Positions 15,196-22,599 of a stretch of 44,580 nucleotides of DNA are shown here, piece by piece. Location of the stretch: the IMG/VR virus record IMGVR_UViG_2534682161_000019; one strand, written 5' to 3'. The number at the start of each line of letters is the position of its first letter. Within the stretch, counting starts at the first letter, position 1. The notes under the pieces were generated by a model, which worked only from the letters and a program-made list of their open reading frames with translations, did not search any database and was not told the DNA's origin. The translations under genes and the position numbers were made by a program. The DNA comes from a virus. Lineage: Duplodnaviria > Heunggongvirae > Uroviricota > Caudoviricetes.

Positions 15196-16245
15196 GTGCG
15201 GGTATTACTTCGACCTGTTCCGGTGCCGGAACTCGGGCTGGTGGTCCTTAAGCCGGGCCGTGAATCTATGCAGGTATTTCATAATCCCCGGGTACTGGTG
15301 GAGCCGGAACCGAAAAGCATGCGCGGTCTGCCGTCCGGAGCTGTTCCTGCCGTTCGCCAGGCGCTGGCGGAAGATAAATCATTACTGCCATTTTTCAGCG
15401 ATGAGCGGGTGATTCGTGCTGCTGGCGGCGCTGGTGCACTGTCTGACTGGCTGTTGCGTCATGTCAAATCCTGCCAGTGGCCTCATGGTGACTATCATCA
15501 CAGTGAAACCGTCATACATCGTTACGGTACCGGCGCGATGGTGTTGTGCTGGCACTGCGACAACCAGTTGCGTGACCAGACCTCCGAATCACTCGGGCAA
15601 CTTGCTCATCAAAACCTGTCGGCATGGATGATTGACGTCATACGCCACGCAATGAATGGCACACAAGAGCGGGAATTATCGCTGGCTGAATTGTACTGCT
15701 GGGCTGCTGTAAATGATGTAGTGGATGCCATGACCGAAAATATGGCGCGTCGAATCCTGAAGCGTCCGGGTGAAAAAATCCGCTCAATATACCGCGAGAG
15801 CGACATCATACCGGGAGAACCGACAGCCACCAGCATACTGAAGCAGCGCACAAAAAATATTGCGCTACCACCTTACGCCCACCAGCAACAGAACCCACCA
15901 CAGGAAAAGACGGTGGTCAGCATCGCCGTTGATCCGGAGTCTCCTGAATCTTTCATGAAGCGACCTAAACGTCGCCGTTGGGTAAATGAGAAATATACGC
16001 GCTGGGTGAAGACTCAGCCGTGTGCGTGTTGTGGTCAACCAGCCGACGATCCCCATCACCTGATTGGTCATGGTCAGGGCGGAATGGGAACAAAGGCCCA
16101 CGATATTTTTACACTACCGCTGTGCCGGGAGCATCACAACGAACTTCATGCGGATCTGCTGGCGTTCGAAGAAAACCATGGTTCCCAGATTGATTTAATT
16201 TTTCGTTTTCTTGATCACGCCTTTGCAACCGGCGTGCTTGGGTAA
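15196..16245 (+). CDS. DUF968-like protein (YdfU-like) with C-terminal HNH-like Cys/His motif
   Basis: 349 aa; GTG start 5 nt after GGAGG; C-terminal ...CACCGQPADDPHHLIGHG...CREHHNELH. Confidence 0.55.
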   Translation: MRVLLRPVPVPELGLVVLKPGRESMQVFHNPRVLVEPEPKSMRGLPSGAVPAVRQALAEDKSLLPFFSDERVIRAAGGAGALSDWLLRHVKSCQWPHGDYHHSETVIHRYGTGAMVLCWHCDNQLRDQTSESLGQLAHQNLSAWMIDVIRHAMNGTQERELSLAELYCWAAVNDVVDAMTENMARRILKRPGEKIRSIYRESDIIPGEPTATSILKQRTKNIALPPYAHQQQNPPQEKTVVSIAVDPESPESFMKRPKRRRWVNEKYTRWVKTQPCACCGQPADDPHHLIGHGQGGMGTKAHDIFTLPLCREHHNELHADLLAFEENHGSQIDLIFRFLDHAFATGVLG

Positions 16246-16257
16246 AAGAGGTTACTG

Positions 16258-16629
16258 ATGCGTATAGAGTTTGTTTTGCCTTACCCGCCGACGGTGAACA
16301 CCTACTGGCGACGTCATGGCAGCACATATTTTGTATCAAAAGCCGGTGAGCGTTATCGCCGTGATGTGGCGTTCATTGTTCGCCAGCAGCGGTTGAAATT
16401 AAACCTCTCCGGAAGGCTGGCGATAAAGATTATTGCAGAGCCACCGGATAAGCGCCGTCGTGACCTGGACAATATCCTGAAAGCACTGCTGGATGCGCTG
16501 ACACATGCGGGGCTGCTTATAGACGACGACCAGTTTGATGAAATCAATATTGTGCATGGTCTGCCTGTTTGCGGTGGGCGACTGGGTGTGAATATATTCG
16601 TAATAAGAGGATGTAATGATGTTGCGTGA
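16258..16629 (+). CDS. rusA: RusA-family Holliday junction resolvase
   Basis: 123 aa; [12 protein letters not shown]...[27 protein letters not shown] matches RusA (PPS.N.YYR...RRRDLDN...DAL..AG...DD). Confidence 0.8.
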
Positions 16630-16990
16630 TATTCAGCTGGTTATGGAGCGGTGGGGAGCATGGGCAGCAAGTAATCATGAAGATGTAACATGGTCCTCGA
16701 TAGCTGCTGGTTTTAAAGGATTAATCCCGACTAAAGTGAAATCACGTCCTCAGTGTTCTGATGATGACGCCATGATAATTTGTGGCTGTATGGCACGATT
16801 AAACAAGAATAATCAGTATTTGCACGATTTGTTGGTGGATTATTACGTAGGTGGAATGACATTTATGGCTCTTGCACGTAAGCATAGATGTTCTGATGGG
16901 CTTATTGGTAAAAGACTTTATAAAGCTGAAGGTATTATTGAAGGAATGCTTATGGCTCTGAATGTCCGGTTAGATATGGATATGCGGTAG
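16616..16990 (+). CDS. Q: late-gene antiterminator Q (phage 82/21-type, Quu-like)
   Basis: 124 aa; [18 protein letters not shown]...[14 protein letters not shown]...LLVDYYV... resembles E. coli prophage Quu antiterminators; immediately upstream of the late region. Confidence 0.7.
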
Positions 16991-17137
16991 GGATATATAG
17001 TGACGAGGGTTATGTTTTCCGTGTTTATAATTAATATGTTTATTTTTTGATGGTCATGAATTTTATGGAAGGTAAACAAAATGTTGCCAGGTGAATTGAA
17101 AATATTGATAATCAATCATCATCATTAAATAAAAGGA

Positions 17138-17961
17138 GTGTTTATGTGGATTGTGTTAGCACTGTCACTGTCAACTCTCAGTTGGCATAAGGTAGTGGCT
17201 TTTTCATTGTTGACGGTGTCTGTTGTCCTGGCTGTGCTTAATGATATTATTGATTGGCCGGTGTTGTTTTTTGTTGCTACAATCGTTTTTTTTATTATTT
17301 TGAAGTTCAACTGGAAATATAACGCCTGGGCTAAATCCATATATGAAGCTGGCATAGTTTTATCAGCCATAGCATTATCTTTCCATTTATGGCCAGGGTT
17401 TCACAATCCTGTAGTGCTAAAGTCTGTCACTGTCGGACCTCAAAGCACTCCCTATACAATGTATTTTAATTTTGATAAAGCGCTGGTGCCATTTTTGTTA
17501 GTCCTGTGTACAGCTTCTTTGTTTAAAAAAGAAGTGAAATCAGAAGTGTCTTTGTGGAAATGGGGGGCTCTGTTGCTCTCTGTTCCTCTTATACTGTTTT
17601 TGGCTGTTTTTTTGGTGGGTTAAAGCCAGAGATTCATTTTCCAGAGTGGTTGCCAGAGTTTATATTGGCTAATTTGTTTTTTGTGTCTCTGGCAGAGGAG
17701 TCATTATTTAGAGGGTATATTCAATCACGGCTATCAGAAGTGACGTCTCCATTGGTTGCGTTAATTGTGGCGTCTTTGTTGTTTGGTTTTTATCACTATT
17801 CAGGTGGTGCTTTACTTGTATTATTTGCCACGTTATCTGGTGTTGTGTATGGATTGTCATGGATGTGGAGTGGGTGCTTGTGGGTGGCAACCCTTTTCCA
17901 TTTTGGTCTGAATCTGTGTCACTTGTTATTCTTTACCTATCCATTCTTAAAACATAATTGA
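17138..17961 (+). CDS. CPBP-family intramembrane metalloprotease (CAAX protease/Abi domain), disrupted by a frameshift in a T7 run
   Basis: ORFs 17138-17623 and 17554-17961 overlap in different frames; second part carries CPBP motifs EESLFRGY, FGFYHY, HFGLN; adding one T to the T7 run at 17607-17613 restores a single ~275-aa multi-TM protein; AT-rich. Confidence 0.65.
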
Positions 17962-18102
17962 TTTTTTTCTATGGCTTTAAATTTATAACACTGAAAAATA
18001 GCAGTATGTGACATTTGCATGAAAAATATGCACGGCAAAGCATTTACGTACGTAAAAAATCATGTATGCTTTTAAGAGTGGTTATTTCACCGCATAGCCT
18101 GA

Positions 18103-18126
18103 ACCCGCCTCTGAGCGGGTTTTTTG
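18103..18126 (+). terminator. rho-independent terminator after the CPBP gene
   Basis: ACCCGC-CTCTGA-GCGGGT hairpin followed by TTTTTTG. Confidence 0.55.
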
Positions 18127-18248
18127 TGCCCGCAAAGTAGCGCAGTGCGTTAAATGTGCTGGTAGTTATTAATACTGGTCTTTCTGCTTGCTGGCTTTTT
18201 AGACAAGAGTTATTGGTATGTCACGTTAACCAGAAAAGGGAAAAAGAC

Positions 18249-18446
18249 ATGCTAAAACAGCAGGATATGACCGAAACCGCCAGAGTGGTGTTTAATGAAT
18301 TAAGCGTCACCGAACCGGCGACCGTCGGGGAGATTGCGCAGAATACTTACCTTTCACGCGAGCGCTGCCAGTTAATACTGACTCAGCTTGTTATGGCGGG
18401 TCTGGCAGATTATCAGTTCGGTTGTTACAGACGCCTTCCGCAGTGA
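18249..18446 (+). CDS. hypothetical small winged-helix-like protein upstream of the methyltransferase
   Basis: 65 aa from the ATG at 18249 (AAGGGA RBS); ...VGEIAQNTYLSRERCQLILTQLVMAGL... resembles a DNA-binding wHTH. Confidence 0.45.
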   Translation: MLKQQDMTETARVVFNELSVTEPATVGEIAQNTYLSRERCQLILTQLVMAGLADYQFGCYRRLPQ

Positions 18447-18596
18447 AGGCTTTTTAATTTGTGGTAATGGGCGGCTGGTGGGTGTTAGCGGCACCTGCCA
18501 GCCATCTGCTCATGCGTTGGGGTCACAAGCAAACCTCAGGCCCATCTGCTTTGCGCAAAAGCGGTATGAGCCTATCAGAGAAGTGCTTATTGATCT

Positions 18597-19146
18597 ATGG
18601 CTAATACTGTAAAAATATCCAGCTGCGAGTTAATCAACGCTGATTTCCTGGAATTTATCCAGACCTTACCGGAAAACTCTGTCGATCTGATAGTCACAGA
18701 CCCGCCATACTTTAAAGTGAAGCCCGAGGGCTGGGATAACCAGTGGAAGGGCGACGATGATTACCTGAAATGGCTGGATCAGTGTCTGGCGCAGTTCTGG
18801 TGGGTATTAAAACCCGCCGGAAGTCTTTACCTGTTCTGTGGTCATCGCCTGGCATCTGATATCGAAATCATGATGCGTGAGCGCTTTAATGTGCTGAACC
18901 ACATTATCTGGGCGAAGCCGTCCGGGCGCTGGAACGGGTGCAACAAGGAAAGCCTGCGGGCGTATTTCCCGGCAACAGAGCGCATTCTGTTTGCGTCCGG
19001 GAGATTTGGTTGCCGACTTTTTCATGGGGTCAGGCTCCATAATAAAAGCAGCGCTGGCACTTGGGGGCATGGCGTTAAGCGTTGAACTTGAGTCTGAACG
19101 TTTTGAGCATACTGCGGGTGAAATAGTTACGTTGGCAGATAATTAA
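18597..19146 (+). CDS. DNA methyltransferase (N6-adenine/N4-cytosine type, DPPY motif), apparently frameshifted or internally deleted
   Basis: N-terminal frame contains TDPPYF; the SAM-binding motif (PGDLVADFFMGSGS...ALALGG...) is in a different frame ending at 19146; the combined length is short for this family. Confidence 0.55.
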
Positions 19147-19260
19147 ATCACTGCACAATAAGCTAATGAATTGATGTTAACTTCCCGTATTATTGGGCTA
19201 CTTCGAGAGAAAGGTGCATTACATTTCAGATGTATTTCATCTCACATCCGAGGAAGCAAT

Positions 19261-19336
<76 letters not shown>

Positions 19337-19339
19337 TAT

Positions 19340-19414
<75 letters not shown>

Positions 19415-19546
19415 ACATTTGATAGAGGCGTATTGCAGCACTGGCGTATTTTTATTACGTGAGGACAGATTGTTTTTTTAGGAACTCTCAGTTTTCGGGC
19501 TATGTTTTGAGGCCAGGTTAGCCTCAGTGCTGATTTTTTACAATAC

Positions 19547-19615
19547 CGGAATGGTGCATTATTGGTTGGGTTACGTAGTGAGCCCTATGGCAGGTACCGG
19601 TGATGCACCATTCCG
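19547..19615. other. long imperfect hairpin (13-bp stem, ~43-nt loop) downstream of the tRNAs
   Basis: CGGAATGGTGCAT (19547-19559) pairs with ATGCACCATTCCG (19603-19615). Confidence 0.4.
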
Positions 19616-19694
19616 ATGTTGTAAACATCACTTAGAGTAAGTTATAGAACAATTTGCTACTAAGTAAAACCTGAAACCTGGGAATACATCTTTA

Positions 19695-19718
19695 CCGCCA
19701 CACTTGGCGGTTTTTTTT
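19695..19718 (+). terminator. rho-independent terminator (possible tR-prime-like late terminator)
   Basis: CCGCCA-CACT-TGGCGG hairpin followed by TTTTTTTT. Confidence 0.6.
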
Positions 19719-19816
19719 ATTCTGTTTTTTCATGGCTCGCTACGGCGGCCTTTTTCATGTATACCCTGGCGGTTATTATGATGGCTTGTTTATTTGTTCA
19801 TAAGAGGATTGATACA

Positions 19817-20299
19817 GTGGTCACTTATGCTGATATCAGGGCAAAACGGGCCGAAATACTGAAAGCTAAGCAGGAATACATTCAGCGGTTGCGGGATACA
19901 GCCACAAGGCTGGTCAATGCCTATGAGTCTTCACTGGCGTTGCCGGAACTGCAATGGCGAGACATTGAGGGTGAGTTACATCCTTACGTCTATATTTGCT
20001 TCAATGGCTTCAGTGTCCGACCGGAGGATTTGCAGGTAGACCTTAGGGACGGAGTTGCGTTTAAATTATACACAGTTGTTGATGACAATCCCCGCCAGTC
20101 TGCAAGTATGGAAGTTGGTGTAAAGATTGTGCTGCTTGATGGCGATAACCTGACGATTTCAGTTAATGGTTATGGGGACAGAACATTTTCGCACGTAGAT
20201 ACCGATGCAAAAATTAACGAGGTATGCGAGTTCATCAAAGACAGTATTTTAATGTCGATGAATGATGTGAATTTGGCAAAGCATCTCTGCCGAAGATAG
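19817..20299 (+). CDS. hypothetical protein (moron at the position stx occupies in Stx phages)
   Basis: ORF track 19757-20299; GTG at 19817 lies 9 nt after an AAGAGG RBS; no recognised motif. Confidence 0.4.
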   Translation: MVTYADIRAKRAEILKAKQEYIQRLRDTATRLVNAYESSLALPELQWRDIEGELHPYVYICFNGFSVRPEDLQVDLRDGVAFKLYTVVDDNPRQSASMEVGVKIVLLDGDNLTISVNGYGDRTFSHVDTDAKINEVCEFIKDSILMSMNDVNLAKHLCRR

Positions 20300-20509
20300 A
20301 AGGCAGGAGTCGTAAAAAGGAATCGTTCGAAAATCTCAGAATCACCAGGCTGCGCATTTGCGTGGCCTTTTTTGTATCCGCGCCACGCCCGGCGCATATC
20401 AAAAACCACAGAGCCTTTCAGGGGTGAGCTTACGGGATGGTCAGTGTGACTTTCTCTGTGGGCTGGTCACCCCCGGGCGCAGGCTCACCCACTAAAAGGA
20501 AAAGTCACG

Positions 20510-20935
20510 ATGTTTGGTATTTTCAAAAAGAAAACACGCAAGGCCATTACCGAAGTGAAGAAGATGGAGAACCGCGACGCAGTGGAGGCGACCGTCTGGG
20601 GTGCGTATTCCATTGCATACGCTGACGACACCTGTGACTCGAAAGAAATCGCGGTACTGGAGAAAACCATTGCAGCACTTCCTGCCTTTGCGCCGTTCTC
20701 CGGTGAGATTGCACAAATGAGTGCAAATATCCGCGCCCGTTATGAAGCGTCGCCGCGCTCTGCCAATGCTGAAGCCCTTCGCCAGCTGGCTGATGTCGCC
20801 GGTACTGATGACGCAGTGAATGTGCTGTGCCTGTGTCTGGATATTGCAGACCAGGATGGCATTGGGCCGGAGGAAGAAGTACAGCTCAAGAAAATTGCTC
20901 AGGCGCTTCAGTTACCGCTGGAGCAGTACCTGTGA
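20510..20935 (+). CDS. TerB-like (tellurite-resistance TerB domain) protein
   Basis: 141 aa; layout ...AYSIAYADDTCDSKEIAVLE... and ...DIADQDGIGPEEEVQLKKIAQALQL... resembles the two TerB repeat units (ADG..S.EE / SDG.FDDDEK...IA..LG). Confidence 0.5.
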   Translation: MFGIFKKKTRKAITEVKKMENRDAVEATVWGAYSIAYADDTCDSKEIAVLEKTIAALPAFAPFSGEIAQMSANIRARYEASPRSANAEALRQLADVAGTDDAVNVLCLCLDIADQDGIGPEEEVQLKKIAQALQLPLEQYL

Positions 20936-21084
20936 AAAGTGCGCGCCTTGTACTGGCTGCCATCCTGCTGTTTCTGGTAGTGGTGGTGGATTTTACCGGA
21001 CGGCTGATGTCGGTACTGGCAGATGGTGTGCTGGTGGTGATGGTGTTGGTCGTGCTCCGGCCTTTACTGCGCAAATCTGAATAA
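20932..21084 (+). CDS. hypothetical small hydrophobic peptide overlapping the TerB-like stop
   Basis: GTG at 20932 overlaps the TGA of the upstream gene (GTGA); 50-aa product VKSARLVLAAILLFLVVVVDFTGRLMSVLADGVLVVMVLVVLRPLLRKSE. Confidence 0.3.
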   Translation: MKSARLVLAAILLFLVVVVDFTGRLMSVLADGVLVVMVLVVLRPLLRKSE

Positions 21085-21195
21085 CACCACGCAAAAGGCA
21101 TCTGCGGGTGCCTTTGATTGGGTGTTGTTTTTACGGGCCGCTGGTGGCCTTTTTTGTTTCCATTATACAACGCCCGCATCTGCGAGGTGGGGGTT

Positions 21196-21411
21196 ATGAA
21201 ATCCATGGACAAAATTTCAACGGGCATTGCCTATGGCACCTCCGCAGGCAGTGCTGGCTACTGGTTTTTACAGTGGCTTGATCAGGTCAGTCCGTCACAG
21301 TGGGCTGCGATTGGTGTATTAGGGAGTCTGGTTCTGGGCTTCCTGACTTATCTGACAAATCTGTACTTCAAAATAAGAGAAGACAGAAGAAAGGCTGCGA
21401 GAGGTGAATAA
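21196..21411 (+). CDS. S: pinholin S21-type holin with dual-start motif (antiholin/holin)
   Basis: 71 aa [71 protein letters not shown]; matches phage 21 S21 as I recall it; Met1 and Met4 give the two starts. Confidence 0.85.
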
Positions 21412-21908
21412 TGCCTCCATCATTACGAAAAGCCGTTGCTGCTGCTATTGGTGGCGGGGCTATTGCTATAGCATCTGTGTTAATCACTGGTCCAGGTGGT
21501 AACGATGGTCTGGAAGGTGTCAGTTACATACCATACAAAGATATTGTTGGTGTATGGACTGTATGCCACGGACACACCGGAAAAGACATCATGCTCGGTA
21601 AAACGTATACCGAAGCAGAATGCAAAGCCCTCCTGAATAAAGACCTTTCCACGGTCGCCAGACAAATTACCCCGTACATCAAAGTCGATATACCAGAAAC
21701 AACGCGCGGCGCTCTTTACTCATTCGTCTATAACGTGGGTGCTGGAAATTTCAGAACATCGACTCTTCTTCGCAAAATAAACCAGGGTGATATCAAAGGC
21801 GCATGTGATCAGCTACGGCGCTGGACATACGCTGGCGGTAAGCAATGGAAAGGGCTGATGACCCGTCGTGATATTGAGCGTGAAGTCTGTTTGTGGGGGC
21901 AGCAATGA
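21411..21908 (+). CDS. R: SAR endolysin (phage 21 R-type lysozyme, T4-lysozyme fold)
   Basis: 165 aa; N-terminal signal-anchor-release domain ([23 protein letters not shown]) then catalytic ...[26 protein letters not shown]... Confidence 0.85.
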
Positions 21909-22372
21909 GCAGAGTAACCGCGATTATCTCCGCTCTGATTATCTGCATCGTCGTCTGTCTGTCGTGGGCGGTCAATCATTACCGTGATAACGCCATCGCC
22001 TACAAAGAACAGCGTGATAAAAAAGTCAGTGAGCTGAAGCAGGCGACTGCCACCATCGCTGACATGCAGCAGCGTCAGCGTGATGTTGCTGCGCTCGATG
22101 CAAAGTACTCGAGAGAATTAGCCAATGCGCAAGCTGAAAATGAAACTCTGCGTGCTGATGTTACCGCTGGTCGTAAGCGCCTGCGGATCAACGCCACCTG
22201 TCCAGGCTCCGTGCGTGAAGCCACCGCCACCGCCCGCGTGGGCAATGATGCCAGCGTCGAACTCTCTCCAGTTGCTGGACGAAACGTTCTCGGTATCAGA
22301 GACGGAATCATCAGCGACCAGGCAGCATTGAGAACGCTTCAGGAATATATCCGTACTCAGTGCCTGAAATAG
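21905..22372 (+). CDS. Rz: i-spanin Rz
   Basis: N-terminal TM helix then coiled-coil-rich periplasmic domain; ATG at 21905 preceded by a GGGGG RBS (track begins at the upstream GTG 21893). Confidence 0.8.
22125..22331 (+). CDS. Rz1: o-spanin Rz1 (lipoprotein embedded in the +1 frame of Rz)
   Basis: [22 protein letters not shown]... lipobox LVVSAC; proline-rich mature region (PPPPPAW); fully nested in Rz. Confidence 0.8.
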
Positions 22373-22599
22373 TTTTTTCAATGCGTTGTATCGTCGCCGT
22401 ATTTCCGCATTAACAGAGACCGCAGCCCTATGGGGAGACTCCTCTGCGCGAGTGTGCGGGGATAATCAAAAACGATACACACCGGGGTTTACTGCGTTAA
22501 CGGAGCGCGGCGTTGTCCCCTCATAGTCGCCTGGCCGGTGCGATGGTGGAAGAAACCGGAACACATTACAAAATGATAACAATTATCATTTTTCGGGTC

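Follow-up and report, generated by a model that had tools for sequence, protein, structure and literature searches.

The stretch of DNA analysed here, hereafter the window, comprises 44,580 nt of a tailed-phage genome of the class Caudoviricetes (IMG/VR record IMGVR_UViG_2534682161_000019). In its late region, between a pair of tRNA genes and the lysis cassette, lies a short open reading frame (ORF), here called the cargo ORF, whose product belongs to the protein family PHROG 5091. Our analysis indicates that it is almost certainly a real, translated gene and very probably an autonomous cargo unit, or moron, made up of a terminator, a putative promoter of its own, a single gene and a second terminator (Table 1). 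The original prediction had placed the ORF directly 3' of the tRNAs and a terminator and 5' of the lysis cassette. The upstream neighbours and the lysis genes are where it put them, but a TerB-like and a DUF3927 gene, overlooked there, separate the ORF from the holin. An Rfam search of positions 16000-22500 returned nothing at threshold beyond the two tRNAs.

Table 1 The cargo ORF, its control elements and its neighbours, in window coordinates.
Feature	Position	Strand	Description	Basis
tRNA-Thr(UGU)	19261-19336		upstream of cargo ORF	
tRNA-Gly(UCC)	19340-19414		upstream of cargo ORF	
Upstream intrinsic terminator	19694-19719	+	hairpin ACCGCCACACTTGGCGGT (19694-19711) followed by T8	7 pairs, 5 of them G-C, loop of 4
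Promoter-like element	19752-19779	+	TTTTCA (19752-19757), 16-nt spacer, TATTAT (19774-19779)	9/12 consensus matches
Alternative in-frame starts	19757, 19778, 19781	+	ATG at each; 19757 (180 aa) is the choice of the Prokaryotic Genome Annotation Pipeline (PGAP)	ORF reading
Shine-Dalgarno sequence	19802-19808	+	AAGAGGA, 8 nt ahead of the GTG	sequence
Cargo coding sequence	19817-20299	+	160 aa, GTG start, PHROG 5091 family	ORF list, profile match, homologues, dN/dS
Mosaic, fast-diverging centre	19917-20116	+	residues ~34-100 (end of helix 1 and first half of sheet)	identity drop, dN/dS
Downstream intrinsic terminator	20347-20374	+	hairpin AGGCTGCGCATTTGCGTGGCCT (20347-20368) followed by TTTTTT	9 pairs, 6 of them G-C
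TerB/TciA-like gene	20510-20935		between cargo ORF and holin	Pfam TerB
DUF3927 (TciB-like) gene	20932-21084		between cargo ORF and holin	comparison with relatives' annotation
P21-type (phage-21-type) holin, lysozyme, Rz	from ~21118		terminase genes further 3'	

In its longest form the cargo ORF, on the + strand, has ATG 19757 as its first codon, ends with the stop at 20299 and encodes 180 aa. In a search against the hidden Markov models (HMMs) of the PHROG families, the window protein matches PHROG 5091 with E=5.5e-41, and residues 21-174 of the 180-aa ORF cover profile positions 2-161 of 164, so that the match extends over the full length of the family. A word-indexed search found 23 close homologues with 49-99% identity in E. 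coli, Salmonella, Citrobacter and Hafnia. An exhaustive profile search widened the family to 119 clusters at 50% identity (E<=1e-3), nearly all of them single-domain proteins of 155-180 aa; the homologues are all annotated as 'hypothetical'. In pairwise comparisons with eight diverged relatives (Nei-Gojobori), the ratio of non-synonymous to synonymous substitution rates (dN/dS) of the cargo ORF is 0.15-0.27, which shows that purifying selection acts on the reading frame and that it is translated. Homology to a known phage late protein, or evidence that the ORF is untranslated, had been named as grounds for abandoning the original prediction. We found no such homology, and the substitution pattern speaks for translation.

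The profile search also picked out P0033, a secreted repeat protein of 2983 aa with 21 stretches that match the family profile. Its acidic TVTDDDGDSD repeats and TVTDDDGDSDTDN motifs resemble the TVVDDNPR loop of the family. The match is most likely compositional, and P0033 was dropped as a clue to a domain fusion.

The start codon proposed in the original prediction, GTG 19817 preceded by an AAGAGG ribosome-binding site, agrees with our data. The PHROG 5091 profile opens at residue 21 of the 180-aa ORF, which corresponds to this GTG, and most homologues begin with M-[VI]-T-Y. In other lineages AGGAG, AAGGA or GGAG precedes the family start, equivalent to the Shine-Dalgarno sequence of the window. 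The longer form that the prediction had allowed for also exists as an ORF: RefSeq (PGAP) annotates the gene in a 543-nt form as 'hypothetical protein', while the 160-aa form is used in at least one other submitted annotation (P0160).

It is improbable, in our assessment, that the true product is longer and begins at an upstream in-frame ATG (19757, or 19778/19781), in which case the 19757 form would carry a hydrophobic N-terminal membrane anchor. Besides the PGAP annotation, this reading draws on a borderline hydrophobic N-terminus in the 180-aa form (Kyte-Doolittle value of 1.59 in a 19-residue window) and on extensions of 12-15 residues in the annotation of ~38% of the profile matches. Several divergent lineages have an in-frame ATG or GTG 33-39 nt 5' of the family start, often at exactly 36 nt (19781 in the window), and some of these upstream starts have GAGG or AAGGTG 5-7 nt ahead of them. 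Against it, ATG 19757 is replaced by ATA in three loci (L009, L010, L016); an upstream ATG is missing in L003, L035 and L046 and out of frame in L026 and L047; and the copies from P2-like phages have none in frame. Among close relatives the 12-codon extension shows few substitutions, and these are mostly non-synonymous in our own reading of the aligned sequences. In our reading the upstream 'ATG' probably arises where a -10 box of the type TAnnAT runs into a G; our preferred start is GTG 19817, although a dual start of the gene is possible. An in-frame ATG at exactly 36 nt is shared by the window (19778-19783) and loci L013, L020, L021, L031, L036 and L045, at a protein identity of only 25-50%; this could be a further translation start or, alternatively, the tail of a -10 box common to these lineages.

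Terminators bound the cargo gene on both sides. Terminator-like hairpins 5' of the unit are visible in several other lineages too, and a G+C-rich hairpin with a T-run lies at most 75 nt past the stop codon in 15 of the 16 lineages compared. The TATTAT box of the promoter-like element lies ~40 nt (43 nt) ahead of GTG 19817. A -10-like hexamer, defined as at least 4/6 matches including A2 and T6 and often accompanied by an upstream TG, is found at -50 to -36 from the family start in 13 of these 16 lineages, compared with 2-7 of 16 in control windows of equal size. In locus L011, homology to the window starts at ~19767, and therefore the -10-like box belongs to the cassette and travels with the gene. 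The cargo ORF has a G+C fraction of 0.44-0.48 and thereby deviates from its neighbours (methylase gene, 0.53; TerB-like gene, 0.53-0.56). These features, together with the mosaicism and the relatives in other cargo sites described below, bear out the earlier view of an accessory gene or moron. Because a terminator stands between the cargo gene and the lysis genes, expression in the lysogen is favoured over purely late expression, and we infer that transcription of the gene takes place in the lysogen, a state in which the holin has to be kept off.

The flanks of the unit show what kind of site it occupies. Just 5' of the tRNAs, a small TrmB-like gene and a DNA methylase gene are 90-93% identical to those of Stx2 phages. 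Phage phiP27, in which this module is 93% identical to that of the window, has the gene order Q, GIY-YIG, TrmB-like gene, methylase, tRNA-Ile, tRNA-Arg, stxA2e, stxB2e, holin. In PPyecE_EH1910, the slot between methylase and TerB-like gene is filled by an annotated 'plasmid stabilization protein' and a 'transcriptional regulator', which we read as a toxin-antitoxin-like pair. Different cargo thus lies between common flanks, and homology breaks off at the edges of the unit, as expected for an inserted moron. It is established that stx lies 3' of Q, within the late region (PMC6266700). Since the stx2e genes of phiP27 and the gene pair of PPyecE_EH1910 are found at the same place, the 'stx-equivalent position' assigned by the original prediction is correct.

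The likeness to the Shiga toxin genes ends with the slot, behind Q, the TrmB-like gene, the methylase and the tRNAs and before the lysis genes. In contrast to stxA/stxB, the cargo gene is single rather than paired, has its own terminators on both sides, and encodes neither a signal peptide nor a toxin domain; there is no relationship in sequence or fold. A Shiga or AB5 toxin was ruled out, as Pfam gave no match, the gene is single and the 160-aa form has no hydrophobic leader. An operon with the TerB-like gene was likewise rejected: a terminator lies between the two genes, and each occurs independently of the other.

The distribution of the family across prophages, which the original prediction had proposed to survey, is patchy and covers lambdoid, P2-like, tail-operon and chromosomal copies. 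All 19 IMG/VR loci are lambdoid prophages. The TerB-like gene is mostly present downstream in these loci and is 91-100% identical (mostly 94-98%), with 68-100% for the cargo gene. More distant relatives, with 22-31% identity, lie between antiterminator and holin in unrelated phages (L002, phage CharmingMan; L031; L035; L045; L048), and in all the family occupies the Q-to-holin slot in 6 independent lambdoid lineages. The lambdoid type is nevertheless rare, with 27 occurrences in 5426 complete E. coli genomes and only 5 matching phage records. Near-identical alleles of the cargo gene are flanked by unrelated lysis cassettes and terminases.

A second branch, which matches PHROG 5091 with E=1.4e-67, is found in P2-like phages. 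Its members are only ~25% identical to the window protein but share its length and predicted architecture. The gene order in these phages is gpA, ParM, ParR, variable cargo, an ORF of 42 aa (present in most of the loci sampled), the family gene and the portal gene in opposite orientation. The family gene lies beside the portal gene in all six P2-like loci sampled, and a more divergent copy (L046) has the same position, so that the family is represented in the gpA-portal hotspot by two lineages. This P2-type branch occurs in 397 of the 5426 E. coli genomes (7%), including ST131 strain EC958 and enterotoxigenic E. coli (ETEC) H10407; examples are the P88-like P2 phages vB_EcoM-705R2 and PhiR44_2, where its product, encoded beside the portal gene, is annotated as hypothetical. 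The gpA-portal interval of P2 phages is a documented defence hotspot (PMC9122126). In the StbA + Plasmid_stab_B loci listed by Rousset et al., the P2-type protein has no label other than 'hypothetical'.

Two further lineages, from Xenorhabdus and Chromobacterium, carry the gene in tail operons, with an 8-nt overlap between the copy in L044 and the tail gene that follows it. One solitary copy is chromosomal, away from recognisable phage genes. The family is almost absent from plasmids, and a scan of the family alignment over one-genome-per-species GTDB representatives gave no confirmed locus. Judged by these sequence comparisons, the family is mobile between cargo sites in phages of several types. 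A search for a conserved partner gene among the small ORFs adjacent to the gene in 10 loci found none, and a toxin-antitoxin or a defence/anti-defence pair was discarded as a candidate. The family gene is truncated by IS1 in L040 (ETEC H10407, 6001-7141) and frameshifted in the IMG/VR prophages L018 and L019; it is therefore dispensable for host and prophage. Directly 5' of the family gene, two phages unrelated to each other, L002 (3423-3908) and L048 (3892-4383), carry HNH_3/AP2-type endonuclease genes that are 37% identical to each other. Their presence may be either a coincidence of the slot, or homing endonucleases may help to move the cassette.

The cargo gene itself is mosaic. Nucleotide identity to loci L009, L011 and L012 is 90-100% at 19767-19916, 46-78% at 19917-20116 (46-74% for L009 and L012 alone) and 84-100% at 20117-20299. 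In the central segment dS is saturated and dN reaches 0.25-0.31. Compared with L013, an evenly diverged allele, dN/dS is 0.29 in the centre and 0.06-0.11 in the flanks. Because the central dS is saturated, we attribute the pattern to recombination between old alleles, by which the centre of the protein (residues 34-100) is swapped, and to a relaxed constraint on this segment.

The cargo product is predicted to be a soluble, mildly acidic protein of ~18 kDa, with an isoelectric point of 5.2 (family median 5.1). A check for signal peptides and transmembrane segments, suggested by the original prediction, found neither these nor a hydrophobic leader in the 160-aa form; without a signal peptide, the protein is expected to be cytoplasmic. 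The AlphaFold2 model (predicted local distance difference test score, pLDDT, 86.8; predicted template-modelling score, pTM, 0.79) has helices at residues 4-39 and 130-159 and eight strands over residues 46-124. The predicted fold thus consists of two long helices, one at each terminus, with an antiparallel sheet of eight strands between them. Two-layer helix-sheet-helix folds, set among the nearest comparisons, include the actin capping protein subunits, the FP domains of PI31/Fbxo7, frataxin/CyaY and chaperones of the type III secretion system. Positions conserved across the family include Y36, S39, L40, Y57, V58, F82, T86 and K141, and two motifs, TVxDDxPRGG and EVCExIK, are conserved as well. 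The cargo protein shows no obvious catalytic motif, and the chances that it is a non-enzymatic binding protein are about even.

The earlier observation that the ORF has no recognisable motif is confirmed by searches of several databases, of which only PHROG 5091 gave a match. The window protein has no NCBIfam match, and its only Pfam match, RepB_C at E 0.04, is below the cut-off. Over 51 family members Pfam gave scattered chance matches only, and sequence searches of the PDB with two profiles reached a best E of 0.14. The Tai family was tested directly and ruled out: hhalign of the 51-sequence profile against one Tai sequence (TaiEcA = phi80 orf63) returned a probability of 0.07 and E 0.72.

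Our best explanation, which we hold tentatively and at odds somewhat below even, is that the cargo ORF encodes a prophage-expressed, non-enzymatic binding moron that acts in phage-phage conflict. The anti-phage role in particular, meaning exclusion of or defence against other phages, is drawn by analogy and is slightly less probable still. According to this model, the moron is inserted in a variable cargo slot of the lambdoid late region that extends from the Q/methylase/tRNA block to the TerB-like gene and lysis cassette. In the lysogen, host RNA polymerase would transcribe the cargo gene from its own promoter, and its own terminator would keep this transcription off the lysis genes. On induction, Q-modified polymerase would read through and boost the cargo gene, a likeness to the stx cassette. 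The protein would work stoichiometrically by binding a partner, with the mosaic sheet segment (residues 34-100) setting specificity and the invariant helix residues and TVxDDxPR(GG) loop forming a common core. It would thereby take part in conflicts of phage against phage, as do other small non-enzymatic prophage morons.

Known systems provide partial precedents for such a role. With the classical morons (HK97 gp15, lambda bor/lom/rexAB, P2 old/tin/fun), the cargo unit has in common the promoter-gene-terminator layout between conserved phage genes, although the promoter is putative here, as well as an odd base composition and patchy presence among relatives. Family copies also occupy sites that are known to carry morons, namely the late region, tail operons and, in P2 phages, the gpA-portal hotspot (PMC9122126). 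However, the cargo protein is homologous to none of the classical morons. It is predicted to be soluble and cytoplasmic, unlike the membrane and lipoprotein exclusion factors gp15, bor and lom, and it lacks the ATPase or nuclease domain of P2 Old.

The Tai proteins (phi80 orf63) offer the best functional analogy for what the cargo protein might do. They are small, single-gene, domain-less proteins that prevent tail assembly through binding and not through catalysis, are missed by PADLOC and DefenseFinder, and show 22-43% identity between members; they occur in moron loci of beta- and gammaproteobacterial phages and in satellite hotspots (PMC11364771). There are also differences. TaiEcA is mainly helical, as judged by eye, whereas the cargo protein is predicted to be helix-sheet-helix. 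In addition, Tai genes usually lie upstream of the packaging module, and the cargo locus has no adjacent anti-Tai-like partner.

Several observations weigh against our explanation. Small cytoplasmic binders are also typical of counter-defence and host-takeover proteins. PADLOC-DB v2.0.0 holds no defence HMM that matches the window, CharmingMan or P2-type protein, and a literature search with the PHROG 5091 identifier and six protein accessions found no paper that mentions the family. In the P2-like phages, the cargo between the family gene and ParM/ParR varies while the family gene itself stays by the portal gene (6/6 loci), and this constant position is as compatible with an accessory gene conserved within the lineage as with a defence gene. 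Taken alone, the promoter is only a weak consensus match, and the promoter scan (12 sites, against 8.2 +/- 3.3 in shuffled sequences) is overall not above shuffles. Positive selection on the central segment was considered and is unsupported, as dS is saturated there.

It is unlikely, though less so than the other alternatives, that the protein is instead a counter-defence or host-takeover factor, that is, a small cytoplasmic inhibitor of a host defence or housekeeping protein that aids phage replication. Such a factor would be made at entry from the constitutive promoter and again at a high level from the late transcript. The solitary chromosomal copy argues against this possibility, and the insulation of the gene from the lysis genes by a terminator suggests expression in the lysogen. 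Furthermore, the known anti-defence genes of lambdoid phages lie in early operons and not behind Q. In P2-like phages anti-defence genes are rare, at 28 of 1511 (bioRxiv 10.64898/2026.02.27.708500).

We consider it less probable again that the gene serves lysogenic conversion of host physiology, such as stress tolerance, cell division or colonisation, possibly together with its TerB/TciA-like and DUF3927/TciB-like neighbours. In most lambdoid loci of E. coli the TerB-like gene does follow the cargo gene directly, and CharmingMan keeps this adjacency with a cargo protein that is 27% identical and a TerB that is 88% identical. Elsewhere, moreover, the slot holds virulence or fitness cargo, namely stx, with IraM nearby. 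Yet a terminator splits the cargo and TerB genes into separate transcription units, and the association is not strict: TerB is missing in L019-L022, L031, L035, L045 and L048, PPyecE_EH1910 has TerB and no cargo gene, and the P2-type and tail-operon copies are without TerB.

A phage-intrinsic late function in lysis timing, late transcription or cos packaging, rather than a moron, is the most doubtful of these alternatives: the recurrent position just before the holin, the place beside the portal gene and cos end in the P2-like loci and the overlap with a tail gene in L044 would fit it, but the gene is missing from most lambdoid phages, sits as near-identical alleles next to lysis cassettes and terminases that are unrelated, carries a terminator and -10-like box of its own, is pseudogenised in some prophages and exists in tail-operon and chromosomal copies.

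That the gene is catalogued as 'hypothetical' and as PHROG 5091 was already known, and morons in the stx slot are a well-known kind. What our analysis adds is the family-wide picture, in which a gene with a mosaic segment and without structural relatives forms an autonomous cassette and turns up repeatedly in cargo hotspots, together with the argument for expression in the lysogen. The Q-to-lysis slot holds lambdoid cargo that is massively expressed on induction, the medically important example being Shiga toxin, and its other occupants show what selection favours there. Here it houses a phage-restricted family without an entry in Pfam, NCBIfam or defence databases and without a solved structural relative. 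The -10-like box, the terminator that would shield the holin and the specificity-like mosaic segment make the gene a clean, single-gene candidate, simple to clone, for a new phage-exclusion or counter-defence activity; without such activity, it would be one more ordinary moron.

Other parts of the window between Q and the cargo unit show features of their own. The region's best sigma-70-like match (17084-17112; TTGCCA, 17 nt, GATAAT; 10/12) lies ~95 nt 3' of the Q stop codon and is a candidate for the late promoter pR'. Just 3' of Q, a CPBP/Rce1-like intramembrane protease gene (17138-17961) is split into two overlapping ORFs. The same gene is intact, with 819 nt, in E. coli GB089 and N96, and the split in the window is probably a frameshift or sequencing error. 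The DNA methyltransferase gene (18597-19146) is truncated or frameshifted into ORFs of 162 aa and 51 aa; it is a PGAP pseudogene in GB089 and N96, and the phiP27 homologue has 1059 nt.

The stretch from tRNA-Gly to the upstream terminator (19415-19760) is non-coding and strongly structured when folded as RNA, with a minimum free energy of -128 kcal/mol (z = -7.1); it includes a hairpin whose arms, of 30 nt each, lie at 19537-19566 and 19596-19625. Matches that cover only part of the query, approximately window positions 19430-19758, at roughly 80% identity among the matches listed, are without annotation, and such partial matches seem to account for the bulk of about 400 additional E. coli genomes in that search. 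The stretch could be an unannotated prophage RNA or a regulatory element.
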